From a virus, in IMG/VR virus record IMGVR_UViG_3300020469_000020, positions 1-64,000 of that record: a stretch of DNA of 64,000 bases. One strand, written 5' to 3'. The translations under genes and the position numbers were made by a program. The notes beneath the pieces are model-generated. The model was not told the DNA's origin, made no database searches, and saw only the letters and a list, made by a program, of their open reading frames with translations. Shown piece after piece: positions 8,801-48,734 of this stretch (its first letter is position 1; each line of letters begins with the position of its first letter).

Positions 8801-9226
8801 AACATCTTCTTCAAAAGTAGTTGCTGTATTAGCAACAGTTACCTTTAATGCACCATCTACAAATGTTTTAACATCCGCTAAACTAGCTATCACATATGTG
8901 TTTGCTGCTTGGCCACCTGGGGTATCTTTGATTGTTGTTTTATCTTCGGCACGAATAGCTTGATATGTTGCATTAGCAGTTAAAACTGTATTATCATCTT
9001 CAAAGGTATTATAGTCAGTATGAATTCTGTCTATTCTTGTTCCATTTAGCAACGCAATTGAATTTGCAGTCACATCATGTATCGTTAAACTACCCGTACT
9101 ATCATATCTGACAAGCTTAGTTGCAGTTTTTATAGCATTAGCTTCATTTAGATCATTGATCATCTGGTTTGTGGTATCTAACCAATTACCAAAAGTTTGA
9201 CCTGTTACTATTCTGTTAATTGCCAT
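5846..9226 (-). CDS. Long tail fibre protein with S74 chaperone
   Basis: N-terminal TFGNWLDTTN motif; GIIRYN..FEGY..W modules; three cupredoxin-like repeats; C-terminal SAGELKENI...LNGVEFTW...YGLLAE...YSKVVALLIEGMK. Confidence 0.85.
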   Translation of the reverse strand: MAINRIVTGQTFGNWLDTTNQMINDLNEANAIKTATKLVRYDSTGSLTIHDVTANSIALLNGTRIDRIHTDYNTFEDDNTVLTANATYQAIRAEDKTTIKDTPGGQAANTYVIASLADVKTFVDGALKVTVANTATTFEEDVVIEKNLLVKGTKTEFNTATLNVEDNNIVLNKGGTVTSAELAGFDVEATNASFRLVDSGNRFPKFGATEVAKTITLDVFSKKFQIAGVSREKIVMNEKDMLKLTYQINTSTKPMSNTVPLAIGTVSGNSRESYILDPDSSTSSTTSRSEISYKIGTTFYNTYAAYKAAFLAETNATVEITFDPASSGKYYYLSGNIINTTVSGEVLFSANTPGSGFSLDIPLGGTVETNPTIELDLGDTFVFRTHFDKPGHNTYPFAIGTASYGDPNVETNVIFGQYTDVTYEINGTVYDGTGGKDFNAYKAAWQATTAGFANVTFAPSVTTGTYFYWNTSDSNTFTANGQIAVTANNISMGGEIEVGYPMGLFFTRGVTYGGSGYLINGSPNAQVNLDSGDTITFNMTVASHPNAVFGIGNSNTAGYEAAADNYIDGVTYELDGVIYDQYTAYKAAFAAATYANVTFTPVSAGDFYYWANNNVAHGGTIVVASPRASSLSTFELKSDTNKAIIENPLEFTVTKNHNSVLTMDGDFANFRGTKSGVVLPSESLDYTPTQDGIIRYNPAQNLFEGYTSGQWRGLGGVVDLNQDTKIEAGDTDDILYHTANGTIVAQVTDTNNFLTSTRTATDGNGVIRTGTIRVEGNANTTVYEIFNTGTIDETAISGNTYSGTTSLLVEPQGVDVRGTGYFKLPVGTTSQRPEHSANGMLRFVSDGIEIHDATTSTSEYFNSLEMYNGENWEALNSVVNEYTFTVTATATYAIPFANLSIAFQKNEIDVYIDGIRIQKGEYTLASVPVGSLFTSTLTFTTVRPVSQIITVVHQPGRKIGVTTINTVNRSELSSGYTDDVRFTGNTIIGTSQPSTSITTGALVVQGGVGVSGDLFVGSSVTELSAGELKENISSIDSAIDKVMALNGVEFTWKHDRESKKEYGLLAENVADIVPNLASFDTDSNPSGVKYSKVVALLIEGMKQQQREINELRSQLPKKRIRKSKSV

Positions 9227-9238
9227 CGTTTTCCTAAA

Positions 9239-9445
9239 TTATTTGGATTGTAATAAGTTAGATATAATCTTTTTCATTTGTTGAATTTCGCTTTTAAGTA
9301 AACGAATTTCACTATCTTGTTGTTTTATATGTTTTTCAACTAAATTTTTTTGGCGAAGGTATGCTCTATGACTATTTATGTTATCTTTGTTTACAGCAAC
9401 TATTGCCAAATTATTCTTGTCTCTTTTATAATCTTCAATTGACAT
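9239..9445 (-). CDS. Small coiled-coil virion protein
   Basis: KRD..AI..N...EIRLLKSEIQQMKKII pattern, like the small gene that follows VrlC/DUF4815 genes in marine T4-like phages. Confidence 0.7.
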   Translation of the reverse strand: MSIEDYKRDKNNLAIVAVNKDNINSHRAYLRQKNLVEKHIKQQDSEIRLLKSEIQQMKKIISNLLQSK

Positions 9446-12400
9446 TAGATAAATCTACGCTAACATTATAAACTAAAGACGACACATTTACAGCATCTAT
9501 TAGTTTAAGTTTATATGTGATAGTTGAATTATTACTTGCGTTATATTCAAATAGTTTTACAATTCTTTTATTTTGTATAATATTTATATCTTCAAAATTA
9601 TCAGCAACACTATCTTCACTGAAACATATTTTATTTACACCTACACCATCATCAAAAACATTTGCTTCTACCCAAACTCTTTTCTTACCTTCATCGTAAC
9701 TAGTCTTCAAAATAGATAAAAATGCATAAGGTTTAACTGCTGTTTGTTCACTTATAAAGGTAGCAGATTTTGTTAATTTTTCTCCTTCAATACTCATCAA
9801 AGAAACATAAACAGTATGTTTTCCATTACTAATAGTAGACACATCTAAATTAAAATCAAAATAATATTCTCCTATATTATTCTGATTTATTGTGGAAGGT
9901 GTAATCCAATTAGTTGGTTCATTAGAATCATCAACTTTATATCCATATTTAAATGCTGTAGGATTAGAATCAGTATCATATAATACTCTAACATTTCCAT
10001 TTCCTACCATGTGTGAATCTGGAATAACTTCAAACTTATCAAATTCAAAATCAAGAACTCTTGTAGAAATACGATAAGTTAATGATTCATTTCCGCTCAC
10101 ATCTCTTAATTTCAGATATACAAGTTTTGAACCATCAATTTGCTCTTCTGGTACTTTAAATTGTTGCGTAATTGTATTTGCACTTGTCAATGCTAATGAT
10201 TTATAATTTGATGGATTATCAGTAAATCCAATTGCATACGCTTCTATTTGTGTATCAGGATCTATGATTTCAAAAATCAACTCTCCATTGTAATAACTAC
10301 CCTGTCTAGTTAATGTTATAGGGGAATTGACGCTTTTAATTACAGGAATATTACTTGTATAAATTATATCAACTCCTGTGTTTGCCATATTACCACTATT
10401 ATCTTTTACATGTAAATATACACTATTTGAAGACAATGTGCTTATAGCAAAATTTTGCGTGTTTACAGTTTCACTTAAAGTTACTGTTGTATTTGGTGTG
10501 CTAAAGTCTTTCCAGAAAGCACTATCATGATCAATACTAGATTGTATAGTTAATGCATATTCATCTACATTAACGTCACTACTCGCACTTGCTTCAAACA
10601 ATTCAGAAGTTGGTGTGACTCTAGAAATAGAAGTAGCAGAAGATACTGTAAAGTTATTGATATTTAGATATGTACCATCATGAATATCTTTAACAATATT
10701 TGCAGTTCCTATATTATGTGCATAATCATAAACTTTTAAATCAAAATTAAACTTTTGTTTGTTTACTCTTATGTTAGAAGCTTTATCAGTTAACCAAAGA
10801 TTCCTAAATTGAGTAATACCAGGATTTGCCGAAGAGTCAGTCACTGTGTAAATATAATTATTTTTAATATATGTAGCTGAAGTTGTTGGTAAAATTACAC
10901 CTGGTGTATTATTTGTTGCTGAGTAAAATTGTATGATTGTATAACTTGAAGGAAACGATGCATATGTTAAACCTTGAATATCTAAACTTAAAGAACCTGC
11001 ACCTCCTGCTTGTTGAATTACTTCAGGATTTGTTCCTAAGTTAGAAAACATGTTTATTTCATTTGCAGGAATACCAATTATATTTCTTAAATAATTTTGT
11101 ACCTGAGTATTTTGATAAGCTAGTCCAGTATAATTACCTACTAATGCATAAGCGTTTGAAATCGTCACTCCTTGATCATCTTCAATTAACATTAAAGAGA
11201 TTTCTAAATTATTAGGTATACCGGCAGCATCTACTTGATCTAAATTAACAGAAATTGTTGGTGTTTTTAAGAAGCTTGGTGTATTAATAGGAACTGTATC
11301 TACCAAGGTTTGATTTTTATACAGTTCATAATGGGAAATACCAACTGCATCTGTTGCGTTAACATTAAATTCTACACTATAATTATTTAAACCAGTTATT
11401 GGACGAATTTCTTTAATACTGAAGTTTGAAACTGTAGGTGCTGTATTATCATAATAGAATTCATGCGGAACTCTTACTTTATTTTCAAAACTATCAGAAA
11501 CAGTTAGATAGATTGTATGTTCTCCATCTGTAAGTGTAGAAAGAGTTGCTGAGAAAGTATTAGTATCATTTGTGATATTATTAGCGGGATCGTATGTCTT
11601 AATTGTAGTTAAAGAAGAATTGTCTATTTCGTATTCTAACTTCTTTAATGCGTAATCATCTGATACGATATATTGGAATTCATTATTAGAGTTATTCAAA
11701 TAATACTTTGAAATAGTACTTGTTGGTTTAAAGTATGCAGCAACTGGAGCAATCGCATCAATATAAATGCTTGTGTTTGCTTTTAGAGAAACATTTCCTG
11801 CAGCATCTGTTGCTTGGAAGTAAAAATATTTTGTACCATTATCTTGAACTGATATTTGTTCAGTTTCTGTAAATAATACAGGAGTGTTACCAACTACAGG
11901 TGCACTAGGTACAGCAGTATAAACTTTTTCTGAATTATTTTGTGAAATATAATAAGTATCTAATCCAGAAGTAACATCGTAAGAATGTGCATTTAATACA
12001 ATATCATATGTGTTTATACCTCTTGTAATAGAGTTAACTGCAAAATCAGTAACTACTGGAGCAGTTTTATCATATATAATAGTTTGTGCGCTATTTGCTA
12101 CATTTTGACATGCATCTTTTATAAAAGCATATACATTACAAGTACCCTCTGTAAATCCTAAAGCTTCTAAGTCTAAACTAAATGTTGATATAATAGATGA
12201 CGCTGGTGAGAAAGGTATTGTTGTCCAACCACTGCTATTCCAAGTTTTATTTGCTGTAGCTGAAAATAAACTTTCTGTCACGCCAGTATCGTCAGTTAAA
12301 CTCATTCTCACAAAAACATCTTTACTTGTAGTGTATTGAGCACCATTATTAATTAATGTATATACAATTGTTGGTGCGTTATTTTCTAATACAACATTGA

Positions 12401-15400
12401 AATTGGAATTAGCAGAGACATTTTGAAGTCTATCAGTGACTGTAGTAACAACTTTTGTGCTACCATAATTACCCACAGGAACATATAAAATATCTGTATA
12501 ATTATTTGCCGTATCGTAAGTAGGATAAGTTTTTCTTACTGTATTATATGAAGTTCCTCCAGCTTCATATACAACATCTTTATAATTTACACCTGAATAA
12601 TTATCTGTAAAAGTAACATTATGATGTATAGCAAAATTTTCAACTCCACTTAGTGTTACTCTTTCTATATTATTTAAAAATGATGTTGATAATGTAGGCG
12701 CAGTTTTATCATATTCTATATTTGTTCCTGATATACCGATATTTCCAAATCTATCTTTTACGTGAATATAAAATATAGAATTGCCTTCTACAAATCCTAA
12801 AGTATCTAAATTTACAACGTCATTTGCAGAAAGTGTTTGCGCCGGAGTTGATAGTACACTCCAACTATTACTAGTTGCTGAGTTATAAACTTCATTATAA
12901 TTTGAAGAATATTTGTAATGAGTTATGTTTGAAAAATCATTACTATCAAAAAGAACATTTACAGAAGGTGTATTTGTTCCATAATCACTAGAATTAAATG
13001 TCTGATTTCCATTGAAAACTACATTTGCAATTGTTGGAGCATTTCTATCTAAAGCTATATTAGAGAAAGTATTTGCAGTTGAAACATTACCTAATAGATC
13101 TATTAATTCAAATTTTACATCTAGTAAGTTTGCTGTATGTGTTCCATCTACTCTTAAATTAATTGTTTCATCTAAGTTATTTGTAACAGGAACTGTATAT
13201 GAAACAACAGTTTGTGCTGGATGAGTTGTTAGAGTTGCTTTTATTGTTCTTATTCCACTTGCAGCATCCGTACCTAAAATTTTAAATTGTAATATGTAAT
13301 CAGTATTATCAGCAAAACTTCCTAAAAATTGTGTGTTTGATATAACAGGACCTGCACTTTCAAACGCTTGTGTTGTCACAGTTTGAGCACTTGTATATCC
13401 ATAATCAGAAACAGCTTTTACTTTAAACGATGCATTAGATTCTGTTAAAGGAAAGTTATAATAAAAAGTACCAACAGCATTTGGAATATTAGGTTGTATA
13501 TCAATTATATAATTGTCTAAGTTTGCCGAACCTACTTCATTAACAATAACTTCTAATTTATCAACAGCAGAACCTGAAGCCGCAGCTACATCATAAGAAA
13601 CTTCAACATTACTTCCACCCAAACTATAAACAACATTTGCTATGTTTACACTATTGATTGTTGGTGGAACTGTAGTGATTGTTTTATATTCTGTATTTTG
13701 TATTTCATTATCAAAGAAATCTTTTATTTTCCATTTAAATCCAGGATATGAATCTGTTCTAGGAACAGTAAAACTTGTATTAGCTGTATAAGAAGTTTGT
13801 CCTCTAGGTATGTCACTCCAAGTATATGGTTCTGAACTTCCAAGATACCAAAATTTATATTGATATAATTCTTGATTATCTGTCATATTCAAATCAAAAT
13901 TCATATAATAATTTGTAAAATCAGAGGAAATACTTGAAAGATATATGTTTGCAGTTGGGTCTTGATTGTCTAAATTAAAATTTAAATAGTAAGTATTTGA
14001 AACATTATCAAAAGTATCTTTATATTGAACATTAAATGATTTTGGTCCAGCGGATAATCCTATTGGTAAAATTAAATTTTTATTAAAAGATTGTACAGGT
14101 GGAACAATTGCAACTTCTGTTCCTCCATCTATTTTATAGGATTTTACTTTTCTGTTATCAAAAGCATAAAGGGCAACATTTGCATTATAAGTAGAATTTG
14201 CTTTTTCTACACCAGCAAGATCTATACCTCCAACAGTATTAATTGAATCTAAATCATATTGCAGATTATATATAGGACTAACATTTTTATAGATATCCGC
14301 AAGTCTTAGATAAAAATCATGTCTTCCTGTGCTTGTTCTGGGTAATAAGACTTGTTGAACTTCTGAAATAGAAGTATTTGGCGTTGTTATTTTTTTCCAA
14401 TTTATTATTGTAGAATCATCTGTTTCTAATGAATACCAATAAACATTATCATTTGGATCGGTGCCTGTAAGTTGGAAATCAAGAGTAAAGCTATTTGCTG
14501 TTAAACCTCCTCCAGCAAATTGAATACTACCAGTTGGTGCTTGTTGATCTACTTGAATTGGAATTGTTCCAATATTACTATAATTTCCAAATAAATCTTT
14601 AACTTGTACTAAGAAATTTTTAGATACTCCAACTTCTGAAATAGGTATATCAAGATATACATTTTTATCTAATGAAATAGTTTTAGTTACATTAACCCAA
14701 CTTTGTGTTGTAATATCATCAAATCCTATTCTATAAGCAACAATACCTTTTGCATCCGTTGCATTAAAGTCCGTAAATATTCTGTAATTATTAGAAGTTT
14801 TGATAGCGTCACTGTATGTAAACGTATTCAGTACAGGAGCGGTTTTATCAAACAATATATTTGTTGTTCTAATCGGACTTTCATTACCAAATAAATCTTT
14901 AACTTGAAAATAAAATGTTAATCCATGTTCTGTTTCAGAAGCAGGCACAACAATTGGTTTTATTTCAGAATAATTAGTATTACTTGAAGTTAATCTTACC
15001 CAAGAATTAGATTGACCAGATATTATATTACCAGAATTATCATTTATACCATATAACTTTATATAATTTACACTTGTGTCGTCACTAGCAATAAGATTAA
15101 AATATGCATTATAATCATTGTCTGATCTTAATTCACCACGATCAAACGAAAAATTACAATCAGGATTAATATTGTCAATATTAATAGTAAGGTTATATAC
15201 TGGTGATAAATTACCTGAAAAGTCACGATACTGTACATACATTATTTTTTGACCATTTGGTCCTAAATTAAGAGTCTCATACTTATCAAATATTTGCGTA
15301 GGAGAACTCAAAACATTCCAATTAGGAGCCGATGCGCTTACAAAATTATGAGAGTATGCTGCTATTTGTCCAGCGTCAGAAGCTGTAAAATGAATATTTG

Positions 15401-16382
15401 CATAATAATTACTTCCCGTTTTTTCTGCATAATCTAGATTAACATTACCAACTGGATTTAGTTTGTCTAAATCAAAGGTTACACTTTGAGTAACCGATTC
15501 GTTTAGATAGTTATCTCTGACTGTTCCATATATAGTTTTGATTCCAGCAGTTTCTGTTTTAGGAACAGTTAATACATGAGTAATAACTCCTGGAGAATTT
15601 AAAATATTAATCGCATTATAATTGGGTGTTGGATTTTCGTAATTAATTGAATATGAAGTGATATCTTGAAACGCATTAAATAATGTAGTCAATTCAACAG
15701 TAATTTGATAATCAGTTGAAGTTTGTACTATTTGCGTAACTTTTAAATTAGATATGGTTGGAGGAGTATTAGTCAGAAAAACATTTATAGGTACGCTTGT
15801 TCTAACTGAATTGCCAGAATAATCTGCATATATCAAATCAAATTGATGAGTTACATTATTAAAAGAAGATGGTACAACTATACTTTGTTGTGCTCTATAA
15901 TCCTGAGTGCTTGCAGGTATAACTATTTGAGATTGTGTACTGTTTGATAGATTTTCAATAGTTGTTGTAGAAATTCCACTATCATCAGATAGGTCTATAT
16001 CAAATATTATTAGATAATCATTTGATGAATTTCTATCAATTCTATTTAAAGCAAAATTATTTAATACAGGATTTGTTAAATCTAAGAAATTATTAGAACC
16101 AACACGAATACTCTCTCCACCAGCATTGAATACTTCAGTTTCAAATAAATGAAACCCAAGTCCATACGCATAAAATGGATATGTTATAGCAGAATATGTT
16201 GTGCTTTGATCTGCAGGAGCAATATTTTGATCAACACCATGAACTACACCGTCAACATATTGCTTGTATTTAATTATATTTGTAGAACTGGTTACGTTTA
16301 AATTAAAATATAATTGAAATTGTGAAGGTGTTGTCGTTACTATCTGTACATTATTTAAAGTTAAAGTTGCTGAAATTGCCAT
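9435..16382 (-). CDS. Giant Ig-like repeat virion protein (about 20 repeats)
   Basis: 2315 aa; ~105-aa repeats with D-x-x-x-P...D-x-x-G-I/V-x-x-Y...D-x-x-G-N-x-S signature. Confidence 0.85.
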   Translation of the reverse strand: MAISATLTLNNVQIVTTTPSQFQLYFNLNVTSSTNIIKYKQYVDGVVHGVDQNIAPADQSTTYSAITYPFYAYGLGFHLFETEVFNAGGESIRVGSNNFLDLTNPVLNNFALNRIDRNSSNDYLIIFDIDLSDDSGISTTTIENLSNSTQSQIVIPASTQDYRAQQSIVVPSSFNNVTHQFDLIYADYSGNSVRTSVPINVFLTNTPPTISNLKVTQIVQTSTDYQITVELTTLFNAFQDITSYSINYENPTPNYNAINILNSPGVITHVLTVPKTETAGIKTIYGTVRDNYLNESVTQSVTFDLDKLNPVGNVNLDYAEKTGSNYYANIHFTASDAGQIAAYSHNFVSASAPNWNVLSSPTQIFDKYETLNLGPNGQKIMYVQYRDFSGNLSPVYNLTINIDNINPDCNFSFDRGELRSDNDYNAYFNLIASDDTSVNYIKLYGINDNSGNIISGQSNSWVRLTSSNTNYSEIKPIVVPASETEHGLTFYFQVKDLFGNESPIRTTNILFDKTAPVLNTFTYSDAIKTSNNYRIFTDFNATDAKGIVAYRIGFDDITTQSWVNVTKTISLDKNVYLDIPISEVGVSKNFLVQVKDLFGNYSNIGTIPIQVDQQAPTGSIQFAGGGLTANSFTLDFQLTGTDPNDNVYWYSLETDDSTIINWKKITTPNTSISEVQQVLLPRTSTGRHDFYLRLADIYKNVSPIYNLQYDLDSINTVGGIDLAGVEKANSTYNANVALYAFDNRKVKSYKIDGGTEVAIVPPVQSFNKNLILPIGLSAGPKSFNVQYKDTFDNVSNTYYLNFNLDNQDPTANIYLSSISSDFTNYYMNFDLNMTDNQELYQYKFWYLGSSEPYTWSDIPRGQTSYTANTSFTVPRTDSYPGFKWKIKDFFDNEIQNTEYKTITTVPPTINSVNIANVVYSLGGSNVEVSYDVAAASGSAVDKLEVIVNEVGSANLDNYIIDIQPNIPNAVGTFYYNFPLTESNASFKVKAVSDYGYTSAQTVTTQAFESAGPVISNTQFLGSFADNTDYILQFKILGTDAASGIRTIKATLTTHPAQTVVSYTVPVTNNLDETINLRVDGTHTANLLDVKFELIDLLGNVSTANTFSNIALDRNAPTIANVVFNGNQTFNSSDYGTNTPSVNVLFDSNDFSNITHYKYSSNYNEVYNSATSNSWSVLSTPAQTLSANDVVNLDTLGFVEGNSIFYIHVKDRFGNIGISGTNIEYDKTAPTLSTSFLNNIERVTLSGVENFAIHHNVTFTDNYSGVNYKDVVYEAGGTSYNTVRKTYPTYDTANNYTDILYVPVGNYGSTKVVTTVTDRLQNVSANSNFNVVLENNAPTIVYTLINNGAQYTTSKDVFVRMSLTDDTGVTESLFSATANKTWNSSGWTTIPFSPASSIISTFSLDLEALGFTEGTCNVYAFIKDACQNVANSAQTIIYDKTAPVVTDFAVNSITRGINTYDIVLNAHSYDVTSGLDTYYISQNNSEKVYTAVPSAPVVGNTPVLFTETEQISVQDNGTKYFYFQATDAAGNVSLKANTSIYIDAIAPVAAYFKPTSTISKYYLNNSNNEFQYIVSDDYALKKLEYEIDNSSLTTIKTYDPANNITNDTNTFSATLSTLTDGEHTIYLTVSDSFENKVRVPHEFYYDNTAPTVSNFSIKEIRPITGLNNYSVEFNVNATDAVGISHYELYKNQTLVDTVPINTPSFLKTPTISVNLDQVDAAGIPNNLEISLMLIEDDQGVTISNAYALVGNYTGLAYQNTQVQNYLRNIIGIPANEINMFSNLGTNPEVIQQAGGAGSLSLDIQGLTYASFPSSYTIIQFYSATNNTPGVILPTTSATYIKNNYIYTVTDSSANPGITQFRNLWLTDKASNIRVNKQKFNFDLKVYDYAHNIGTANIVKDIHDGTYLNINNFTVSSATSISRVTPTSELFEASASSDVNVDEYALTIQSSIDHDSAFWKDFSTPNTTVTLSETVNTQNFAISTLSSNSVYLHVKDNSGNMANTGVDIIYTSNIPVIKSVNSPITLTRQGSYYNGELIFEIIDPDTQIEAYAIGFTDNPSNYKSLALTSANTITQQFKVPEEQIDGSKLVYLKLRDVSGNESLTYRISTRVLDFEFDKFEVIPDSHMVGNGNVRVLYDTDSNPTAFKYGYKVDDSNEPTNWITPSTINQNNIGEYYFDFNLDVSTISNGKHTVYVSLMSIEGEKLTKSATFISEQTAVKPYAFLSILKTSYDEGKKRVWVEANVFDDGVGVNKICFSEDSVADNFEDINIIQNKRIVKLFEYNASNNSTITYKLKLIDAVNVSSLVYNVSVDLSNVN

Positions 16383-16434
16383 ATCTATTTAATCAATTTT
16401 TTATAAGTTTTTTTATTGCAGAGAATGTTTAATT

Positions 16435-16442
16435 TATTTATG
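16435..16442 (-). promoter_or_regulatory. Putative late promoter (CATAAATA)
   Basis: Intergenic, about 50 nt upstream of the ATG at 16382. Confidence 0.55.
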
Positions 16443-16459
16443 TTATAAATCATGGTATA

Positions 16460-19400
16460 CTATGGAGTTAGCGTAAGTATTATTTCTTTATATGCTATCA
16501 CTATTCCAGATGAATTTCTTATTTTTACAAAAGTAGAAATTGTATTTGTTCCCAAGTTGTAAACTTCGTCATTATCTAGTAAAACATCAAACACCGCTTT
16601 TTTACGATTTCCTACAGATATTAAATCATTATATAACATTGGTACACTTGTTCCAGCAGGATGTACTGAGTTAGCAGATTTTGAGTAGAATATTGCTGGA
16701 GTAGAATCTTCAGGTTCTATGTCAAATGTTAGTGTACTTTTGTATTTAGTGAAAACAGAGGTGATGGCATTTACAATATCTGAAGAAGATGCGCCTAATC
16801 CTAATGTTTCTATTGCGCTACCAAAATTAGCAGTATCTGCCACCGCTTTTCTTAAATTATCTTTATCTATAGTAGGTCCTCCACCATAATCTTTACCAGC
16901 ATCAAAAACTAAAAATGCTATTTCATTGTCTATCAATAGCTTTATGAAATAATTAGCACTAGAAGAATTTGTATATGTAGAAGCAGAACTTCCAGTTGAT
17001 CTATTTGTAGGAGGTCCATCTGGTTCATCAGAATATAGAAGTATCATTCGTAAAGCACCTGCTCTCCATGAACCAACAATATCTGAGTTTGCTATTTTTG
17101 CAACCGCTTCTATTTTAGGTTCCCAACCACCTGCTCCACTGTCTTTATATTTTGCAACTGCGGTATCAATTAGAGATTTATCTGATGTCCAATCTTGTGC
17201 AGTTTCTATACCTGCACTACCTGGATTCCAGAACCACACAACAGAATATCTTGCATCAGTAGTATTTGTAGCAGTGTTTTTAGAAAACTCTGCAATAGCA
17301 TCCAGAGATTGTGAAAGAGTACTATACATTGCGTTTGAAAATCCAGGAACATAACTTCCTGAACGGTCTATACAAAGAGCAGCATCAACAGCTAACGATA
17401 CTTGGTCAACAAAAAAATCTATGGTGAATAGTGTTGTTCCACCAGGGTCACCAATTGGCACAGGTACTGTGATTGGTGGTCCTTGCACAGGTGGTAATAT
17501 TGTACCTTGTTTGAATATTCTGTATGTTGCACTAATTGAAAAGCCAAATGATGAAAATCCTAAGACAATATAAACACCAGCATTAGCAAAGTTAAAACTG
17601 GTTATAATTCCTCTAGATGGATCATAAGTAAATGTCTTATTTTGAATTGGTCCGCCCCCTTCTGGTATAAAATCTATATACCATGTAACTTTATCATCTA
17701 TAATATTATCATTCTGTGCAACATGACTTGTTGGCACATTGCCTGTATCAATATCAAGTGTTAGTACAATATCTCTAATATCACCTTCATATTGAGGTAT
17801 ATTCATATTAACTGGAGCACTAAGTGGTGCAGAAACAGGTTGTATTCTTAAATCACTTATTCTAGGAACTTTACCAAGAAAATCAGAAAATTTCAAAGGA
17901 TTATTTGCTGCTGGCAAATTTTCATTAGCATCATTATTACTGCGGTTTATTACTCTTAATCCTCTATATTCACTTAATTTATGTACTCTATTTTTTATAA
18001 CTTCGGCTGTCTTTGAAGAAATAAATCCAGTATGGAAAACTCCATCTCCAAACATAGAAGCTATTGTTTCTCTTAATGGATGCTCATTAGTTTTACCTTC
18101 AAATTTGTAGACAAATCCACTAGCGGTTCCTAATGTTGGTACAGTATATGCTGGATTGTTTAAAGTTACCTTAACTTTATTTTTAGATAGATTTCCTACA
18201 CTATCAACAGCCCATATATAAATTGTTTTTGGAGAGTTTGGTCTATTTAATTTGACTGTTTGACTAAAATTATAAGATGTACTAGGATTAGACCTTACAT
18301 TCCATATACCAGGATTTGTCGGAGTATAAGCAGGTTCTCTTCCGAAATTAGTAATAACCCATCTTTCCACATTAGTCATATTATCTGTTAATGTTCCAGT
18401 AATAGTAATATCATCGGCTGTTACTTCAGACGGTCTTGTAAATGTTTGATTTGGTGCTGTACCTGTTACTGTACATGTTTCATTTACATTACTACTATCT
18501 TTTACTTTTACATTACTTGCTGTCGGTCCTTCAAAGTCATTTATATAACTTATCTGCATATTAGCTGAAAAAGTTTGTGCGGCTCCTACGCTTGAATAAG
18601 TTCCATTATATGCCATTGTAGCAACCCAAAGATATACAGTCTTTGATCCAAATGATGTAGGAGAAAAACTGTAGGGATCTGTGCTATCTATAGCCATTAC
18701 ACCTTTTGGAAATACGTTCCAACCTACCGAAGCTGTATCTTCATAATTATTAGTTGTTGCATTAAATTGAGGAGGTGCGCCAGGAGAGGATGAAGATTCT
18801 GTTATTTTATAACCAATAATTAAATCACCGTTAGTTGTTGTAGCACCGCTAATCGTTATGTCTCCAGCTAAAGCAGTTACCTTGTAATAATTTTCTACAG
18901 TGTTAGTATAACTTCTTGAGTCTTGTTCTATTATAGTTAAATTTGTAGGATTAGTAGCACTCATAGTGCTGTAATCTAAAGCAGAAAAAGTAAATTGTTT
19001 CGCAGCAAAAGAAGGTGGATTTCCATCAGTAATGAGATACATGGTTGCCATGTCCACATTAGTATCTGGAACAATCATTGAAAAATTTTGATCAGAAATG
19101 GCCTGTGAACCAACAGTTGTATCAAAATCTGTTGTTAATGGAGCGTAGTATAAATTTGCTGTTGGATAGAATCCCGATATCAAGTCTGGTGATGTTGGTG
19201 TGATTTCTGCTTTGTAATATCCATCAACTTTAAAAGGTGACTGTAGTGAGCGACTTCCAGAAAGAGATATCCAATTTATTGTTTGACTAGACCTTGTTAT
19301 ATTAAAAGAATTATCTACAAAGTTTTCAGCTTGATCGTATGACTTAACGCTAACTGTTATTGCACCTGCTGTGCTTCCTATATCAACGCTTTGATTTATA

Positions 19401-19849
19401 GTATATGTATTTGGATTTACATAATTTGTAGATAATGTTACTTTTGAGTTTGAGCTTCCATGAGTGTAATAAACAACTCCGGAAGTTGCATCAGTTACTT
19501 CTTCAATGACATATAGATAATTTTGAGCATATTTGGTGAACCCACCTGCATTTAATTTTTTTACGATAGTTGGATCATCATTATCTATTTTAAAATCAAC
19601 ACGAAAAAATGCTGAACTATTTAATGCTTTATCTTGTACTCCATAATGAAGATAATAATCTGAATTGTTTGCTAACGTAGATATATTGGGTAAGGCATCT
19701 GGCTTTGTACTTAAATCAAAAATTACACATTGTGTTTCCGCAATGTCAGTATACACAGCACTTGGAGTAGAACTTGAAGAATATTGAATATATTCTTTTA
19801 TAATACCTGAACCTCTAGGATTAGATCCGGTTCCTCCTCCTACTGCCAT
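16460..19849 (-). CDS. Ig-like repeat protein with C-terminal VWA adhesin domain
   Basis: Ig repeats (QDKALNS, YDQAENF, AVDSVGNLS); MIDAS motif LCIDRSGS followed by WRAGALRMILLYSDEP. Confidence 0.8.
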   Translation of the reverse strand: MAVGGGTGSNPRGSGIIKEYIQYSSSSTPSAVYTDIAETQCVIFDLSTKPDALPNISTLANNSDYYLHYGVQDKALNSSAFFRVDFKIDNDDPTIVKKLNAGGFTKYAQNYLYVIEEVTDATSGVVYYTHGSSNSKVTLSTNYVNPNTYTINQSVDIGSTAGAITVSVKSYDQAENFVDNSFNITRSSQTINWISLSGSRSLQSPFKVDGYYKAEITPTSPDLISGFYPTANLYYAPLTTDFDTTVGSQAISDQNFSMIVPDTNVDMATMYLITDGNPPSFAAKQFTFSALDYSTMSATNPTNLTIIEQDSRSYTNTVENYYKVTALAGDITISGATTTNGDLIIGYKITESSSSPGAPPQFNATTNNYEDTASVGWNVFPKGVMAIDSTDPYSFSPTSFGSKTVYLWVATMAYNGTYSSVGAAQTFSANMQISYINDFEGPTASNVKVKDSSNVNETCTVTGTAPNQTFTRPSEVTADDITITGTLTDNMTNVERWVITNFGREPAYTPTNPGIWNVRSNPSTSYNFSQTVKLNRPNSPKTIYIWAVDSVGNLSKNKVKVTLNNPAYTVPTLGTASGFVYKFEGKTNEHPLRETIASMFGDGVFHTGFISSKTAEVIKNRVHKLSEYRGLRVINRSNNDANENLPAANNPLKFSDFLGKVPRISDLRIQPVSAPLSAPVNMNIPQYEGDIRDIVLTLDIDTGNVPTSHVAQNDNIIDDKVTWYIDFIPEGGGPIQNKTFTYDPSRGIITSFNFANAGVYIVLGFSSFGFSISATYRIFKQGTILPPVQGPPITVPVPIGDPGGTTLFTIDFFVDQVSLAVDAALCIDRSGSYVPGFSNAMYSTLSQSLDAIAEFSKNTATNTTDARYSVVWFWNPGSAGIETAQDWTSDKSLIDTAVAKYKDSGAGGWEPKIEAVAKIANSDIVGSWRAGALRMILLYSDEPDGPPTNRSTGSSASTYTNSSSANYFIKLLIDNEIAFLVFDAGKDYGGGPTIDKDNLRKAVADTANFGSAIETLGLGASSSDIVNAITSVFTKYKSTLTFDIEPEDSTPAIFYSKSANSVHPAGTSVPMLYNDLISVGNRKKAVFDVLLDNDEVYNLGTNTISTFVKIRNSSGIVIAYKEIILTLTP

Positions 19850-19895
19850 TTTTTCTCTTTTAAATAATTTTTTAAATTGATGCTAAACATAAGAT

Positions 19896-19903
19896 TATTT
19901 ATA
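19896..19903 (-). promoter_or_regulatory. T4-type late promoter TATAAATA
   Basis: Exact consensus in the 60-nt gap upstream of 19849. Confidence 0.7.
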
Positions 19904-19909
19904 CTGATT

Positions 19910-22390
19910 TTATAATCTCCAAACCGCTAGACCAGGTGTTTGATAGAAAGAATAATTAAGAATAGCGCCGCCGGAAACAATTATATTTCCTGATGCATTC
20001 ATTGCTATGGGAGAATCACCGATTCCTAATTTATAACCATCATAGTTCCAATTAGGACTAGCACTAGATAATTGGTCATTTAAATTTATATTACCCGGAT
20101 TTGGTGTAGCAGTTCCATCACTTGTCCAACGTGTTGGATTAAACATCATCAAATATTTTGACACACTCCATGCATTTCCATTTCTTTCCAAAACAAATAT
20201 TTTTTCTCTACCTTGTAATGTTGCGCCATCATAATTTGATGATATTGTAGCTAATGTTCCATCATCGTTTAAATTAAATCCATTATAACCGTCTGAGTTC
20301 CTAGTTGACAATCTACCATAACTTGCAATATCGGTGGTGTAGTTAATTGTTTGTATTAAGGAATAACTAGAACCTCCCCACTTATAAAAATAAACTACTC
20401 CTCCGTAATAGAAGTCTCCAGCAGATAACATAAGCCAAATACCATCACCTGATATATCAAATCCTTTTCCTCCAGTATTGACTTGGCCACTATAACTGGC
20501 TTGAAAAGGTGGTGTAAATGTTTGTGCTTGTGTCCAAGTTGAACCACTTCTAGTCCAAACATATACTACTCCATTATAAGAATTTGCACTAGGAGAACAA
20601 GTAACAATTCGTGTTCCATCGTTATTTATTTTAATACCACTAAAACAAGCTCCAAATGGCATAGACAATGTTTGTTGAATAGACCAATTATCTCCAGAGC
20701 CTTTAACATAAACATTTATTGTACTGTTTGTTGTTCCTACTAAATCAGTATGTATAAAATAATTTCCATCTGTAGACATATCAACAGGCAAACTCCAATT
20801 TGATGGATATATGCTTGAAGATTGCCAAACTTCTGTCCATGTTCCAGAAACTTTTTTATAAATTTCAGATGTAGTTTTAGAAGAATCATGACAAAGTATG
20901 TATGTTCCAGAACCTTTAGAAAATTGGACATTATATGGAGTACCTGTAGAACTAACAGTTGTCTTTACCCACCCTGTACCTGAGATTCCCACATAATCAT
21001 AAATGAGAAGTCCTTGGTCATTTACAGCAGAAATTCCTATAACAGTTGTTCCTGCATCATTTATAACTACACCTCTAGCTAAACCAGCATTATGTGTAAT
21101 TATACCATCTGAAGATTCAGACACAGGCGTTCCTGTTGATGGTGCTCCTGGATCACCACTACCTCCAGAAGAACCACTACCTCCAGAAGAACCACTACCT
21201 CCAGAAGAACCACTCACGGGAGCAGATGTACTTGCTGAATTTGTTGTAGTTCCTCCAGTTGAAATTGGTGATGTTCCTGGTAAATCACATATACTTATAG
21301 AACCACTTGATGCGGCTAATTTATTTTTTCCTAACCACTCTGCTGTATAAGGAGAACTTATTGTGGGAGCAGTTAGAGTGCCTGTTGGAGCATCTTTATC
21401 TTGATAAAAAGAAACATTACCAATGGAAACTATATTTTGAGCAGCATCCATTAAATAATAATATAAAGTATTCAAGGAATTATTAGTTAGTGAAACTCCA
21501 GAAATAAAATCACTACTAAAACTAAAAGGATCTGTAGATGTTGAAGTTGTGGGTGATACTGCTCCTCCACTTGAAAAAAAATCTGAAGCAGATGGTGTAG
21601 TTGGTATTGTTCCAGGATCAGTATCTGAATTCAATATTAAAATAGATCCGCCACTTAAAGCAGTTTGTGAAGGAGTTGATGGTGTAGATATTGCTGATAC
21701 TGTAACACCACTTGGTGTAGGTGGCACTACTGGTACTGTTGAGCCAATATCACTACTACCCGTAGAGAGTGTTTGTGTTCCGTGATTTGGATGAGTGTAA
21801 TCTATATCAAATACACCCATTTCCCATTCTACATCTACAGTTGCCCCTCCTTCAACTGCTGTTTTAAGTGCGTTTGGGTCAGCATATGTATGCTTCATAG
21901 ACACTGCACTTACTGGTGTATGAAATACTAACTGTGCAGTAGACCAACTAGCAAGCATTGGTCCAAATGGGTCAAGGTCAAATAGAGTGTTTACGTCACC
22001 TTTATAATAAGTTTGATCATTTAATCTAGTATATCCAGAAGTAGATGTTTCAGATACTGTAGTTCCTGTTACCTTTCTCCAAGTCATATAACTAAATGGA
22101 CCTAAAGGCACTGGGTGTGTTACTTTACTACCCCATTTACCCCATAACTCTGCATTGAGTATATCATAATATCCAATATTAGTAGATGGAAGGCCGTAAT
22201 GTGATGCATCTGGAGCTACCATTAATCTCATAAACATTGTTCCAGAAGGAGCGGTGCCATCCAGTAATCCTCCTATTGTATCATAGGTTTTAATCTGTAC
22301 ATCAGAAATAGTACCTTTGAATTTGATAAGAGCTATTGACTTTGAAGTATCAATATAAAATCCAGTATAAGACGTATTTACTGTGGGCAT
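19910..22390 (-). CDS. Virion appendage protein: unknown N-domain, permuted Ig unit, C-terminal FG-GAP-like beta-propeller
   Basis: 826 aa; propeller blades (DMSTDGNY, KINNDGTRIV, GVVYVWTRSGSTWTQ, DISGDGIWL); PT-rich and GS-rich linkers; AGGA SD; TAATG coupling to the upstream gene. Confidence 0.8.
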   Translation of the reverse strand: MPTVNTSYTGFYIDTSKSIALIKFKGTISDVQIKTYDTIGGLLDGTAPSGTMFMRLMVAPDASHYGLPSTNIGYYDILNAELWGKWGSKVTHPVPLGPFSYMTWRKVTGTTVSETSTSGYTRLNDQTYYKGDVNTLFDLDPFGPMLASWSTAQLVFHTPVSAVSMKHTYADPNALKTAVEGGATVDVEWEMGVFDIDYTHPNHGTQTLSTGSSDIGSTVPVVPPTPSGVTVSAISTPSTPSQTALSGGSILILNSDTDPGTIPTTPSASDFFSSGGAVSPTTSTSTDPFSFSSDFISGVSLTNNSLNTLYYYLMDAAQNIVSIGNVSFYQDKDAPTGTLTAPTISSPYTAEWLGKNKLAASSGSISICDLPGTSPISTGGTTTNSASTSAPVSGSSGGSGSSGGSGSSGGSGDPGAPSTGTPVSESSDGIITHNAGLARGVVINDAGTTVIGISAVNDQGLLIYDYVGISGTGWVKTTVSSTGTPYNVQFSKGSGTYILCHDSSKTTSEIYKKVSGTWTEVWQSSSIYPSNWSLPVDMSTDGNYFIHTDLVGTTNSTINVYVKGSGDNWSIQQTLSMPFGACFSGIKINNDGTRIVTCSPSANSYNGVVYVWTRSGSTWTQAQTFTPPFQASYSGQVNTGGKGFDISGDGIWLMLSAGDFYYGGVVYFYKWGGSSYSLIQTINYTTDIASYGRLSTRNSDGYNGFNLNDDGTLATISSNYDGATLQGREKIFVLERNGNAWSVSKYLMMFNPTRWTSDGTATPNPGNINLNDQLSSASPNWNYDGYKLGIGDSPIAMNASGNIIVSGGAILNYSFYQTPGLAVWRL
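21155..21214 (-). repeat. 18-nt tandem repeat x3.3 encoding a (GSSGGS)n linker
   Basis: accactacctccagaaga repeated exactly three times, plus a partial copy. Confidence 0.9.
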
Positions 22391-23781
22391 TAGAATAGTC
22401 CTGAATCTGCGTCTGAGTGTTCTAGTTTAACTTTGAGGTCTACGGTGTTTGCATAAGATATACTACTTACATCATTTTTATCTTGAGATGTTGATATTGC
22501 AATAGTTCCACTAGGAAGAACATTATCTACAGTTATTGAAACTGTATCTACAGTAGATATATTTTCTACAGCATCCATAACAAAAAATGATAAATCGTTT
22601 GATTGTCCAGTTGTGAGATTTGTAACATTATGATCGTTTTTTGGTGAAGTTTCACTTGATAAGTCTATTCCACTTGCAAAATCAGCAACAACGGGTGTTG
22701 CACTGTCATTTATTTTTACAAGACCTTTTGATACTCCACTTGGATCTGTTCCACTATCTCCAAAATGTAAATTTACATTCACATTACTATCTTTAGTATA
22801 TAATGTACTACTACTTTCTCTAACACTATCTTGTGTTGCGATAACAATAAATCCGGTCGGTGCTGTTGTATCTACAAAGAAATCAACTTCAGCACTTGCT
22901 TCATTTCCAACAATATCTTTAGAAGTGTATTTTACAGTATTTTTACCTTCAACAATACCTTCACTAGAAGTGAGCGTAGTAGTATAACTAGTTGTTGTAG
23001 GAATTGTAGCAAATGCCGTATCTGTTCCATTTACAGTTAAAGTTCCATCATCAAGACCTGAGCCAGAATCCGAAGTATCTATTTTTATGACTATAGTATC
23101 TGTATCATAATATTCATCAGAACCAACGGTAACCGCAGTGCCAGTAGAGGAATCTACACTTACGGCTACTGTAGGTGCTGTAGTGTCAATTAAAAATGAA
23201 TATGTAGAATCGGTTGATGTATTATCAAGATAATCTTTACTACTCGCTGTTACTGTATGTAATTGATCGCCTGTATAAGTAACTGTTTTACTTGCTGTAG
23301 TATATTCAGTTCCATCAATTGTTACAGACTTTACTCCTACTCCACCAGAATTATCAACAGCAGAAACTGTAATTGATGCAGGATCATCTTTAGTACAGTT
23401 TTGATTTGATGCATTTGTAACAATTGTAGCATCAGGAGAAATGGTGACTGTTGGGGCAATATCATCTGAAGGATGTCCAAATTTTATTCTAGATGATTTA
23501 ACTGAATTATTGTGTGTAGATTGTCCATATGCTTCAACATACCAAGGTCCTCCTGTTGCTGGAAACGTATGCGATACACTACTTCCTGATTTAAATCCAA
23601 CTCCCTGAATATATAATTTTTCTGTTCCTGATCTAAATCCTGCATCTCCTCCACTACCTCTTCGAGTTCCACCACCTGTTAAGGTAAATGAAACAGGTTG
23701 CGTCTTATCATCTATTACATTATATCCTTCTCTACTAGAATATGTAGCTCCAGTAAAAGTAACGCTTATGGAAATTGCCAT
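22390..23781 (-). CDS. Ig-like repeat protein ending mid-repeat
   Basis: 463 aa; DDIAP, DTTAP and DNVLP repeats with D-x-x-(G/E/D)N motifs; stops at HSDADSGLF. Confidence 0.8.
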   Translation of the reverse strand: MAISISVTFTGATYSSREGYNVIDDKTQPVSFTLTGGGTRRGSGGDAGFRSGTEKLYIQGVGFKSGSSVSHTFPATGGPWYVEAYGQSTHNNSVKSSRIKFGHPSDDIAPTVTISPDATIVTNASNQNCTKDDPASITVSAVDNSGGVGVKSVTIDGTEYTTASKTVTYTGDQLHTVTASSKDYLDNTSTDSTYSFLIDTTAPTVAVSVDSSTGTAVTVGSDEYYDTDTIVIKIDTSDSGSGLDDGTLTVNGTDTAFATIPTTTSYTTTLTSSEGIVEGKNTVKYTSKDIVGNEASAEVDFFVDTTAPTGFIVIATQDSVRESSSTLYTKDSNVNVNLHFGDSGTDPSGVSKGLVKINDSATPVVADFASGIDLSSETSPKNDHNVTNLTTGQSNDLSFFVMDAVENISTVDTVSITVDNVLPSGTIAISTSQDKNDVSSISYANTVDLKVKLEHSDADSGLF

Positions 23782-24740
23782 TAATATCCAACTCTATTTT
23801 TAAATTTTTTGATAAAACCTATAGGAGAACAATATTCTTCCCAAACCCAACGATTATGTTTTTGAATTTCTAACATATTATTATTACTAATAAAATTATC
23901 AATTTTATCTTCTATTTCTTTTATTGTATTTTCTGATGATACAGGTACACAAACATCATTTATATTTACTTCATAATCTTCAAATATAAAACAACGGTCA
24001 CTTTCTATTAAAATAGGAATTCTCCCCATCATTAAAGTTTCGTAAAATCTCCAACAAAAATTAGCACCTCCACGAATACAGATAGAAAATATATTTTCTT
24101 CTAAGTTGTTATAGAATGTATTTCTTTCCTCTACTGAATTAGTTCCTGTTTTTCCACGTTCTCTTATAATAAAATTATTATTAAATTTTAATTCTTTGAA
24201 TTTATTTAATACACCTTCTCTTCCAAAATGTTTTGCTCCACACCAACCAATGCTAATACTATCATTTAAATAATTATCATTAAAAACATCTTTGAAAAAT
24301 GCAGGCAAAGGAAATTGTTTATTCGTTCTTTTAGATTTGTTTAAATGTGTTTGGTATGAATTTATATCGTTATAACCCAGGTCTTCATCATATGTATTAT
24401 AACTAAATCCATATATATTACGATGTTTGTATTTTTCATAAAATATTTTTTCAAAATCTTCAAAAATTTCATGAGATTGCATTCTTGATTGTATATCTTC
24501 ATTACGTTCTATAGCCTCTGTTGGACTAAAGAATGACATGGGATACACCATTATAGCTTCTTCAGAGTCACTTACATATTCAAAGTTTTCAATACAGTAT
24601 TGTGTTACTTCTGGATAGTTTGTTTCTCCTCTCTCTATAGCATGAGGATGTCCATATAAAGGAAGTGCTTGATGATGAATAGCACCATAATCAAATTCCT
24701 GAATATCAGGTACACAAAATATAGGAATATTATTTGACAT
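23781..24740 (-). CDS. Exostosin family (GT47-like) glycosyltransferase
   Basis: FSICIRGGANFCWRFYETLMMGRIPILI matches the exostosin core (F-x-L-x-x-R-G...R-x-Y-E-x-L-x-x-G-x-I-P). Confidence 0.8.
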   Translation of the reverse strand: MSNNIPIFCVPDIQEFDYGAIHHQALPLYGHPHAIERGETNYPEVTQYCIENFEYVSDSEEAIMVYPMSFFSPTEAIERNEDIQSRMQSHEIFEDFEKIFYEKYKHRNIYGFSYNTYDEDLGYNDINSYQTHLNKSKRTNKQFPLPAFFKDVFNDNYLNDSISIGWCGAKHFGREGVLNKFKELKFNNNFIIRERGKTGTNSVEERNTFYNNLEENIFSICIRGGANFCWRFYETLMMGRIPILIESDRCFIFEDYEVNINDVCVPVSSENTIKEIEDKIDNFISNNNMLEIQKHNRWVWEEYCSPIGFIKKFKNRVGY

Positions 24741-25946
24741 TTAATTATTTTCCTTTACTCTAGAAATAAAATCATTTATTATTCCAATTGGACTACAATA
24801 AGTTTCCCAAACCCAACGATTATGTTTTTGAATTTCTAACATGTTATTATTACTAATAAAATTATCAATCTTACTTTCTATGTCTTTAAGTTTATCTTTT
24901 TGAGAAATCAATACACAAACATCATTTATATTTACGCCATGGTCTTCAAAAAGAAAACACCTATCACTTTCAACTAAGATAGGAACTCTTCCCATCATTA
25001 AAGTTTCGTAAAATCTCCAACAAAAGTTTGCTCCACCACGCATACAAAATGTGAATAAATTGTCTTGTATATTCTTATAAAATCTATTACGTAAACTAAA
25101 ATCTTTAGTTCCTGTATTTCCATTGATAGTTGTAATAAAATTTGTTTTATATTTTGTTTTCTTTAATTTATTTAAAATTTTATCTCTATCAAAGTGTTTA
25201 GCACCACAAAACCCTATATTAAACTTCTCTTGAGTTATATAATTATTATCAAAAACATCTTCAAATATTGCAGGTAATGGATATTCGTTTATATTTCTTT
25301 TTGATTTATATAAATGTGTTTGATAAGAAAATATATTTTTTATATTTAAACCATGATCAAACGTATCTTGTTTAAAAGTATTATCATTCCAATGATAATC
25401 AGATGTACGAATAATATCTTTGTCAACTTCATTTATACGCCAAATTCCACCTATAGTATAAGTAAATGAATATATCTTACGATGTTTAAATGTTTCATAA
25501 AAAACAGTTTTAAAATCTTGTACATGATCTAATGCGTTTGGCGAATCCTTATAGTTACTAGGTAATTTTTTATTATTTGCTAAAAAATCTCTTCTTTCAA
25601 TATATATTTCTGCAGGACTTCTTAGTCCCATAGGATATACCATTATAGCTTCTTCAGAATCATTAACATATTCAAAATTTTTCTCACAATGTTCTATTAT
25701 TTTTTTAGAATATAAAAGTGAATTTTCAGAATTTCTTTTTATCTTATCAGCTACAGCACGAATGTGTGGATGTCCATATAAAGGCAATGCCTCTGTATTG
25801 ATTGCTACATAATTAAATTTTTTGAAATTTTTTTCTTTCTCAAAACTATGTTTATTTAAATGGTCAAACCCAAAACTTGTAGGTAAACTAGAATACTTAT
25901 GCTCACATTTATCTGAAGCATTAACACAAAATATAGGGATTTTCAT
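24741..25946 (-). CDS. Exostosin family (GT47-like) glycosyltransferase, paralog
   Basis: FTFCMRGGANFCWRFYETLMMGRVPILV; strong similarity to 23781..24740 along its length. Confidence 0.8.
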   Translation of the reverse strand: MKIPIFCVNASDKCEHKYSSLPTSFGFDHLNKHSFEKEKNFKKFNYVAINTEALPLYGHPHIRAVADKIKRNSENSLLYSKKIIEHCEKNFEYVNDSEEAIMVYPMGLRSPAEIYIERRDFLANNKKLPSNYKDSPNALDHVQDFKTVFYETFKHRKIYSFTYTIGGIWRINEVDKDIIRTSDYHWNDNTFKQDTFDHGLNIKNIFSYQTHLYKSKRNINEYPLPAIFEDVFDNNYITQEKFNIGFCGAKHFDRDKILNKLKKTKYKTNFITTINGNTGTKDFSLRNRFYKNIQDNLFTFCMRGGANFCWRFYETLMMGRVPILVESDRCFLFEDHGVNINDVCVLISQKDKLKDIESKIDNFISNNNMLEIQKHNRWVWETYCSPIGIINDFISRVKENN

Positions 25947-41693: not shown

Positions 41694-41701
41694 TATTTAT
41701 A
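41694..41701 (-). promoter_or_regulatory. T4-type late promoter TATAAATA for gp23
   Basis: Exact consensus, intergenic. Confidence 0.8.
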
Positions 41702-43010: not shown

Positions 43011-43018
43011 TATTTATA
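43011..43018 (-). promoter_or_regulatory. T4-type late promoter TATAAATA for gp22
   Basis: Exact consensus, intergenic. Confidence 0.75.
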
Positions 43019-48726: not shown

Positions 48727-48734
48727 TATTTATA
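48727..48734 (-). promoter_or_regulatory. T4-type late promoter TATAAATA for gp19
   Basis: Exact consensus overlapping the gp18 stop; a short hairpin (aaggtg/cacctt, 48697-48715) follows it before the SD. Confidence 0.7.

Follow-up and report, generated by a model that had tools for sequence, protein, structure and literature searches.

The pilins of the chaperone-usher pili (Fim, Pap and Caf1) lack the C-terminal G strand of their immunoglobulin (Ig)-like fold, the missing strand is supplied by the N-terminal extension of the next subunit, and the product is a homopolymer; these pili need a periplasmic chaperone and an usher, which a phage that assembles in the cytoplasm is not expected to use. 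The branched tail fibres of G7C, CBA120 and similar phages are built with T4 gp10-like trimeric adaptor domains, each of which is complete in itself. The closest described case is that of the Lactococcus phage Tuc2009, in whose crystal structure a 25-residue C-terminal hairpin of BppU completes the sheet of the C-terminal sandwich of BppA; the BppU-BppA composite is similar to an Ig domain of titin, and a carbohydrate-binding module is flexibly connected to BppA (PMC4742702). Here we analyse three neighbouring minus-strand genes, A, B and C, which lie in the first 64 kb of a 105-kb virus contig (IMG/VR record IMGVR_UViG_3300020469_000020, about 47% complete and with roughly 30% G+C); we call this 64,000-nucleotide stretch the window. 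Gene A stops just after the first half of its last Ig-like repeat, gene B holds a back half and then a further front half, and gene C starts with a back half. A sequence-only reading of the same DNA had described this layout, and its coordinates, sequences and motifs agree with ours (Table 1). It had also proposed that A, B and C complete one another's Ig folds non-covalently across both junctions, and this is supported computationally by the conservation of the cuts, by relatives in which the second joint is unsplit, and by a predicted interface score (ipSAE) of 0.76 against 0.50 for the best control.

The reading we prefer, to which we give a probability of about 0.68, is that the products of A, B and C are translated separately and then make up a single bead-like Ig fibre through two half-domain joints (joint 1 between A and B, joint 2 between B and C). 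Gene A would contribute beads 1-3 and, in its last ~45 residues, the strand pair A/A'-B of bead 4; these C-terminal strands would insert into the strand-deficient back half carried by B (strands C to G) to give a composite bead 4. The next A/A'-B pair, that of bead 5, would follow directly in the B chain (FYQ-DKDAPTG); the remainder of that bead would come from C, together with bead 6 and a large conserved body. Both cuts would fall in the D-x-x-S-G loop after strand B, and it is at this loop that the cargo would leave the rod, on linkers of 25 and 50 residues, as side branches; the N-domain of B (215 amino acids, aa) would hang off bead 4 and its FG-GAP-like propeller off bead 5. The unit in B had been taken for a circularly permuted Ig unit, which misdescribes it; it is the back half of one bead placed directly before the front half of the next. 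B itself would be a connector cassette, with a ~135-aa central unit that is conserved and flanking domains that are exchanged between phages. We infer that the halves refold together, that the virion carries the fibre and that its side domains recognise ligands on the host surface. A more far-reaching proposal, that marine T4-like phages have a family of natural split-Ig plug-and-socket connectors with two orthogonal specificities (A-front/B-back and B-front/C-back) which fold only on assembly and form a new class of self-assembling joint, and that repeated fission on either side of an insert has converted a fibre with nested domains into separately encoded branch modules exchangeable by recombination, seems to us about evenly balanced.

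The gene cuts are genuine, and they are old. In at least two studies, sequencing runs gave contigs that cover positions 19700-21184 and 21185-22600 with zero differences and bridge both junctions, so mis-assembly, which had been named as a possible source of error, is excluded at both. The only break in the cover by public contigs is at an 18-bp x 3.3 tandem repeat in the Ser/Gly linker of B. Near-identical proteins with the same ends are present in other assemblies (P0018 with 463 aa, P0012 with 1129 aa, and P0008 with the start of B). Five relatives of A (P0018-P0022) are 67-99% identical over the last 164 aa and differ in their N-termini and lengths, and all five end in ...KVKL(E/T)H.D..SGLF; likewise, the upstream gene ends in ...SGLF directly before its stop codon at each of the nine related loci that have upstream sequence (as ...SLLF in L008). 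An assembly artefact or a pseudogenised fibre gene might be suspected in a metagenome-derived and incomplete contig whose unitigs break inside the linker repeat of B, but with both junctions bridged, the same ends in near-identical and distant relatives alike, and three open reading frames that are long and intact, we regard this explanation as practically negligible.

A single polypeptide could in principle still be made from the three genes by recoding, through a frameshift at the A-B junction and bypass or read-through at the B-C junction, or by protein splicing. The stop codon of A overlaps the start of B (TAATG), the frame of B is open for 12 codons upstream, and C follows in the frame of B at a distance of 63 nt. 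Nevertheless, the A-B spacers in this family are -1, 8, 10, 13, 26 and 45 nt long, so that every possible relative frame of the two genes occurs; no slippery or bypass signal is conserved among them, and each ATG has its own Shine-Dalgarno-like motif (AGG or AAGGA) before it; such variable spacers, frames and individual motifs point to separate initiation and argue against frameshifting. Three in-frame stops and a late-promoter motif stand between B and C, the B-family proteins begin at the same Met across independent assemblies, the cut falls on the other side of the insert in L008 and L005, and there is no intein-like sequence. We consider recoding or splicing very improbable.

The strongest indication of what the halves are comes from relatives of these genes. 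An exhaustive HMMER search with B residues 1-380 gave 11 proteins, and a pattern scan with the central unit of B gave one locus in viral contigs, L002, and twelve in metagenomes, among which L004 duplicates the L002 contig. At joint 2 these relatives form a natural series of cut states. The joint is uncut in L011-L014, which have the canonical loop (...SGSINYSDGDSGIWQTF..., the YSDGDSGIW loop), and in L002-L004, where a long Gly-rich loop lies within one 1720-aa gene (...GSVNVCDNPTPANGVGGGTGASPAGSGIIIEHFEYS...); the L002 gene aligns with the front half of B and then, column for column, with C from residue 1 on. In the window and P0001 (propeller) and in L007 (three ~110-residue repeats) it is cut and the upstream chain bears the display domains; it is cut right after the front half, with the display domains on the downstream chain, in L008/L009, whose downstream gene is P0017-like; and it is cut with domains on both chains in L005/L006, where the C-type back half is found at residue 1833 of the downstream gene product, after a poly-Pro linker. 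Unsplit fusions, which the sequence-only reading had thought worth searching for, therefore exist for joint 2, and none has appeared for joint 1. Since both uncut and differently cut relatives are present, the front half of B and the back half of C are, as judged from sequence, two parts of one domain, and the loop between them is by the same token a hot spot for the insertion of display domains, where a chain break may come before or after the insert.

The back half of B and, marginally, the end of A can also be recognised by a repeat profile, which we built from the 2315-aa product of the neighbouring gene D and then iterated, with shuffled sequences as the control. The intact repeats of A and C score 44-53 bits with this in-house profile (for example, 52.6 bits for C residues 89-180, at profile positions 1-96); in A the matches are at residues 199-296 and 304-416, the second with 47.5 bits at profile positions 1-101. 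The back half of B reaches 14.5 bits at positions 57-101 (shuffles have a mean of 1.2 and a maximum of 8.6), and the terminal 45 residues of A reach a marginal 6.5 bits at positions 5-36. The repeat family is, by its sequence matches, probably a bacterial Ig-like domain. The A homologue P0022 has a Pfam Big_13 match of 28.1 bits (cut-off 27) and P0021 a Big_12 match of 23.8 bits (cut-off 27); A itself has no Pfam Big match, its sole Pfam match being to PKD_2 with 17 bits against a cut-off of 39.2.

We made one three-chain structure prediction (A 300-463, B 225-385 and C 1-190, with small alignments of our own and B as the scored partner). Its ipSAE was 0.76, 0.77 and 0.76 in the three runs, which agree in at least 85% of contacts, with a partner predicted local distance difference test (pLDDT) score of at least 78. 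The best control, in which C was replaced and A kept, is the one that gave 0.50, and two unrelated partners gave 0.00; our interpretation of the former value is that the predicted A-B joint persists by itself. The mark we used is reached by 58 of 80 solved complexes and by 2 of 110 mismatched pairs, a calibration that is only roughly valid for a three-chain model. In the model A 417-463 lies against the back half of B (B 247-337); B 363-368 (GSISIC) runs antiparallel to C 41-46 (CVIFDL), as strands B and E of an Ig sheet; B 351-353 (EWL) is next to C 86-89 (FKID, where strand G ends); and C residues 4-16, 40-51 and 65-90 are in the predicted interface. These modelled contacts are the ones that the split-domain scheme requires, and they support binding at the level of prediction.

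If A, B and C were instead independent proteins, the partial repeats would be leftovers of gene fission, or else docking peptides for some other component of the virion. This explanation draws on the marginal or absent profile support for three of the four halves, on monomer AlphaFold2 (AF2) models that are uninformative, and on the fact that the binding is a predicted one. It fits poorly with the half-domains being the best-conserved parts of A and B amid unrelated flanks, which useless leftovers would not be, and with the same halves forming one continuous domain in L002-L004 and L011-L014. It would also leave the conserved body of C with no link to the fibre in every split lineage, and the predicted contacts are those of a single sandwich. 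We think it unlikely.

A second possibility, raised in the sequence-only reading, was that B self-polymerises, the front half of one B completing the back half of another, so that a pilus-like homopolymer, variable in length, would lie between A and C. All four halves do belong to the same repeat family, and on the repeat profile an artificial chimera of B-front and B-back scores nearly as well as one of A-front and B-back (10.9 vs 12.4 bits). But in the unsplit relatives the front half of B is contiguous with a C-type back half, which makes C its cognate partner; the hallmark PYTAEWLGKNK of B is strongly unlike the front half of A in sequence; and such a polymer is impossible in the lineages with fused B and C, which still keep the A-B joint. 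Self-polymerisation thus finds no support here and appears quite improbable. Closure of the B unit on itself is also unlikely, as strand G ends at the pole opposite to that where strand A starts and B has no linker between the two.

Several points weigh against the two-joint fibre that we prefer. No relative with an uncut joint 1 was found among those collected. The profile gives the front half of B only 2.5 bits and the first 88 residues of C only 2.7 bits and cannot separate either from shuffles, so that their assignment to one domain draws on the contiguous relatives; sequence statistics by themselves support only one and a half of the four halves, and the order of the motifs is itself real. 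The score of the complex is the model's own confidence, and the halves of a split fold can pass by their likeness to solved Ig domains; moreover, the alignments were shallow and the three-chain setup is unlike that on which the tool was calibrated. AF2 gives B alone a mean pLDDT of 39, with less than 35 for the central unit, and gives less than 50 for the joint region of the unsplit L002 protein; with AF2 uninformative at the joints, the fold of the composite beads comes from one predictor. Finally, the virion location is deduced solely from the place of the genes among fibre genes and from a promoter motif that is not above its chance count in the whole window (16 vs 15.3 expected).

The behaviour of B in its relatives is that of a swappable cassette, as had been suggested. 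In a region-by-region BLAST comparison, residues 241-375 are the sole region common to all eight relatives compared, at 36-64% identity, and the back half is kept in every one of them over this same range of identity. Among these eight, the B N-domain is present in two and the propeller in one; their N-terminal regions are of at least six different sorts, and their C-terminal endings of three. For example, P0001 has the entire architecture of B; P0006 and P0007 begin with about 450-470 residues of unrelated sequence; in P0007 three ~110-residue repeats take the place of the propeller; and P0002 has the B N-domain and an extra domain, and runs on from the back half into intact repeats. As only the central unit is shared, B is defined by that unit and the flanking domains are its cargo. 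The alternative cassettes that had been anticipated, with varied N- and C-terminal domains around a conserved centre, are therefore present, and the proposal that display domains sit on linkers at the cut loops is likewise supported. On the other side of joint 2, the relatives of C have GSGI(I/Y)(K/Q)E... after an initial tail that is rich in Gly or Pro and varies in length, the back half being conserved in P0012-P0017; in P0017 (1826 aa) the C-type start is preceded by other domains, of about 490 residues, and a linker. A tree of the central units groups that of the window with L002 (of the unsplit type) and P0004 and puts P0001 in a separate clade with a support of 99/100, even though P0001 and B have both display domains in common. 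The tree, which is unrooted and has few sequences, suggests cassette exchange or recombination between cargo and connector.

The ~110-residue repeat (DVPDGT.LYW ... EGPE.F.L) is found in P0007, in P0017, and in both the host and the downstream genes of L005; it has no Pfam match. It is a display domain on one or the other side of joint 2 depending on the phage, in two to three copies and always with Pro-rich linkers. The C-type gene of L007 (positions 7188-10064 of that locus) opens with MPPAPSPPPPPPPPTPPTPPSGGSG..., a poly-Pro linker to which nothing is attached; in L005 the same linker comes after about 1800 residues of display domains. The bare linker in L007 may remain from N-terminal cargo that has been lost, or may reflect a mis-called start.

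Table 1. Genes A, B and C, their parts and related features (positions in the window; residue numbers are those of the protein named)
Feature	Positions	Strand	Description
Gene A	22390-23781	minus	463 aa; variable N-terminal part, three Ig-like repeats, front half-repeat, stop; ends ...LKVKLEHSDADSGLF
A residues 304-418	22528-22872	minus	Last intact Ig-like repeat, reference for the fold; 47.5 bits, profile positions 1-101
A residues 419-463	22393-22527	minus	Front half-domain, DNVLPSGTI...KVKLEHSDADSGLF; predicted donor for the B back half
Gene B	19910-22390	minus	826 aa; ATG overlaps the TAA of A by one base (TAATG)
B residues 1-215	21746-22390	minus	N-terminal display domain, no fold assigned; common only to P0001 (49%) and P0002 (52%)
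B residues 216-240	21671-21745	minus	Pro/Thr/Ser-rich linker, read from sequence; no conserved match in relatives
B residues 241-330	21401-21670	minus	Putative back half of composite domain 4, SGGSILILNSD...LYYYLMDAAQNI...VSFYQ
B residues 331-372	21275-21400	minus	Putative front half of composite domain 5, DKDAPTGT...PYTAEWLGKNK...GSISICDLPG
B residues 373-424	21119-21274	minus	Ser/Gly-rich linker with a perfect 18-bp x 3.3 tandem repeat at 21155-21214
B residues 425-826	19913-21118	minus	FG-GAP-like beta-propeller display domain
B-C spacer	19850-19909	minus	60 nt; three in-frame stops; TATAAATA at 19896-19903, 47 nt upstream of the ATG of C
Gene C	16460-19849	minus	1129 aa
C residues 1-88	19586-19849	minus	Gly-rich tail and putative back half of composite domain 5, MAVGGGTGSNPRGSGIIKEY...FKID
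Rest of gene C	16460-19585	minus	Intact Ig-like repeat (residues 89-180) and large conserved body
TATAAATA sites	19896-19903, 41694-41701, 43011-43018, 48727-48734	minus	Upstream of late genes
Gene D	9435-16382		2315-aa protein; about twenty copies of the A/C-type Ig-like repeat

Within B, residue 245 (LSGGS...) is at 21658 and residue 372 at 21275. The N-domain has no Pfam, PHROG or Atlas match, and its AF2 model has a pLDDT below 45. The propeller has no Pfam match; its likeness to FG-GAP propellers is seen in an Atlas feature score of 0.93 with 174 common features and a template-modelling (TM) score of 0.78 to FG-GAP_2 clusters, its AF2 model has a strand-only pattern with a pLDDT of 50-84, and it is 36% identical to the C-terminal domain of P0001. 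The tandem repeat in the second linker encodes (SSGGSG)n, and the public unitigs break exactly there, with a rise in depth, so the length of this linker may vary between strains. Two contigs from one oligo-dT marine RNA library exactly match the propeller-coding positions 20220-20370 and 20496-20815; they are a weak hint that B is transcribed, DNA carry-over being possible, and are too little to claim it; stretches that lack RNA cover carry no information. For the body of C, identity to P0012-P0017 and to the fused L002 gene product is 39-98%. Its residues 780-1129 (16463-17512) contain DRSGS, a motif like the metal-ion-dependent adhesion site (MIDAS), and have no sequence match in the PDB at expectation values up to 1 and no Pfam match; a von Willebrand factor A (VWA) domain is only a possible reading of this region.

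The source is an uncultured marine T4-like myovirus with a late structural block of capsid, portal, scaffold and fibre genes. PHROG matches in the window include the major head protein (1e-142), the portal (6e-180), the scaffold (8e-65) and several fibre proteins, the C-terminal region of one of which resembles those of other tail fibres; the gp23-type capsid, gp20-type portal, gp22-type scaffold and fibre genes are found in one block, as in a T4-like late module. The best matches of the capsid protein are only 52-55% identical and are to Methylophilales phage Melnitz, Pelagibacter phage Mosig and Synechococcus myoviruses. Four genes, namely C, those for the capsid and the scaffold, and one further late gene, each have TATAAATA on the minus strand at 47-56 nt before the start, which is where a T4-type late promoter would be expected. 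The A-B-C stretch is present in marine, seawater and estuary metagenomes from a dozen studies. Megablast of positions 16000-24000 against the phage collection and tblastn of B against 50,697 phage records gave no match, and scans of viral contigs with A alone or B alone as the query gave no related locus.

Upstream of A, B and C are a 1365-aa fibre gene and two further genes, and downstream is gene D, the Ig-repeat gene from which the profile was built. A giant gene homologous to D comes after the B/C gene in L002, L003, L011 and L012, so the gene order A-B-C-D is conserved. Residues 1645-1693 of the D protein were at one time considered as a front-half-only repeat with an in-chain insert; this candidate was dropped, as the iterated match reached profile position 77. 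The two further genes are tandem paralogues (319 and 401 aa) at 23781-25946 that abut gene A; the 319-aa protein has no match in PHROGs.

If the halves do refold together, this locus shows how phages could build long, branched and modular host-recognition fibres from conserved half-domains that act as universal joints, around which adhesin-like domains are swapped. The series of relatives, uncut or cut before, after or on both sides of the insert, would be a rare record of the passage from a protein with nested domains to a multi-subunit assembly. For annotation, it means that genes which end in the middle of an Ig repeat should not be labelled truncations. The finding also bears on the prediction of host range in abundant marine phages, and the halves are candidate orthogonal, non-covalent split-domain connectors for protein engineering.

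How do these putative joints compare with the systems described at the outset? They share with the chaperone-usher pili the use of separately made, incomplete Ig-like subunits that are joined non-covalently through a part supplied by the neighbour. Unlike in the pili, the missing part here is the N-terminal ~45 residues of the domain (strands A and B, profile positions 1 to about 40), it would be donated by the C terminus of the protein encoded just before, and three different chains would form a defined hetero-trimer. There is no sign of a chaperone or an usher: the PHROG-scanned neighbours matched fibre, capsid, scaffold or portal families or nothing, in a scan that included no search aimed at PapD or usher families. 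Like the fibres with gp10-type adaptors, the present one would carry several receptor-binding modules on conserved docking modules, with exchange of the distal domains; unlike them, it would dock through a split Ig fold, A, B and C having been searched for gp10-like domains only through Pfam and PHROGs. The FG-GAP Atlas clusters include flagellins and giant-virus capsid proteins that carry a propeller of this type as an exposed insert, and these resemble B in that an unrelated binding domain has been placed in a loop of a scaffold. The host domain of those proteins, however, is in one chain, whereas here the chain is cut beside the insert and the scaffold must reassemble from two polypeptides.

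The nearest parallel remains Tuc2009, and the statement in the sequence-only reading that nothing like this had been described in phage appendages does not hold, given that the BppU hairpin completes the BppA sheet (PMC4742702). In both cases the C-terminal part of one structural protein completes the Ig-like sandwich of the next, here as a prediction. Comparison of A, B and C with PHROG and Pfam gave no match to the BppU or BppA families, and no sequence relation to them was found. Tuc2009 has a single joint, a 25-residue hairpin, in a baseplate tripod, whereas here there would be two serial joints of ~45-residue half-domains within a bead-like fibre; and, unlike in Tuc2009, the connector holds acceptor and donor halves back to back, display domains are placed at the cut loop, and there are uncut and differently cut relatives. 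The literature that we searched contains no description of serial split-Ig joints in phage fibres. What is new here is the two serial half-domain joints, the acceptor-plus-donor connector, the display domains at the cut loop and the series of relatives from uncut to cut. Taken with the Tuc2009 structure, they suggest that the completion of a fold between the products of adjacent fibre genes may be a general and under-recognised principle of assembly.

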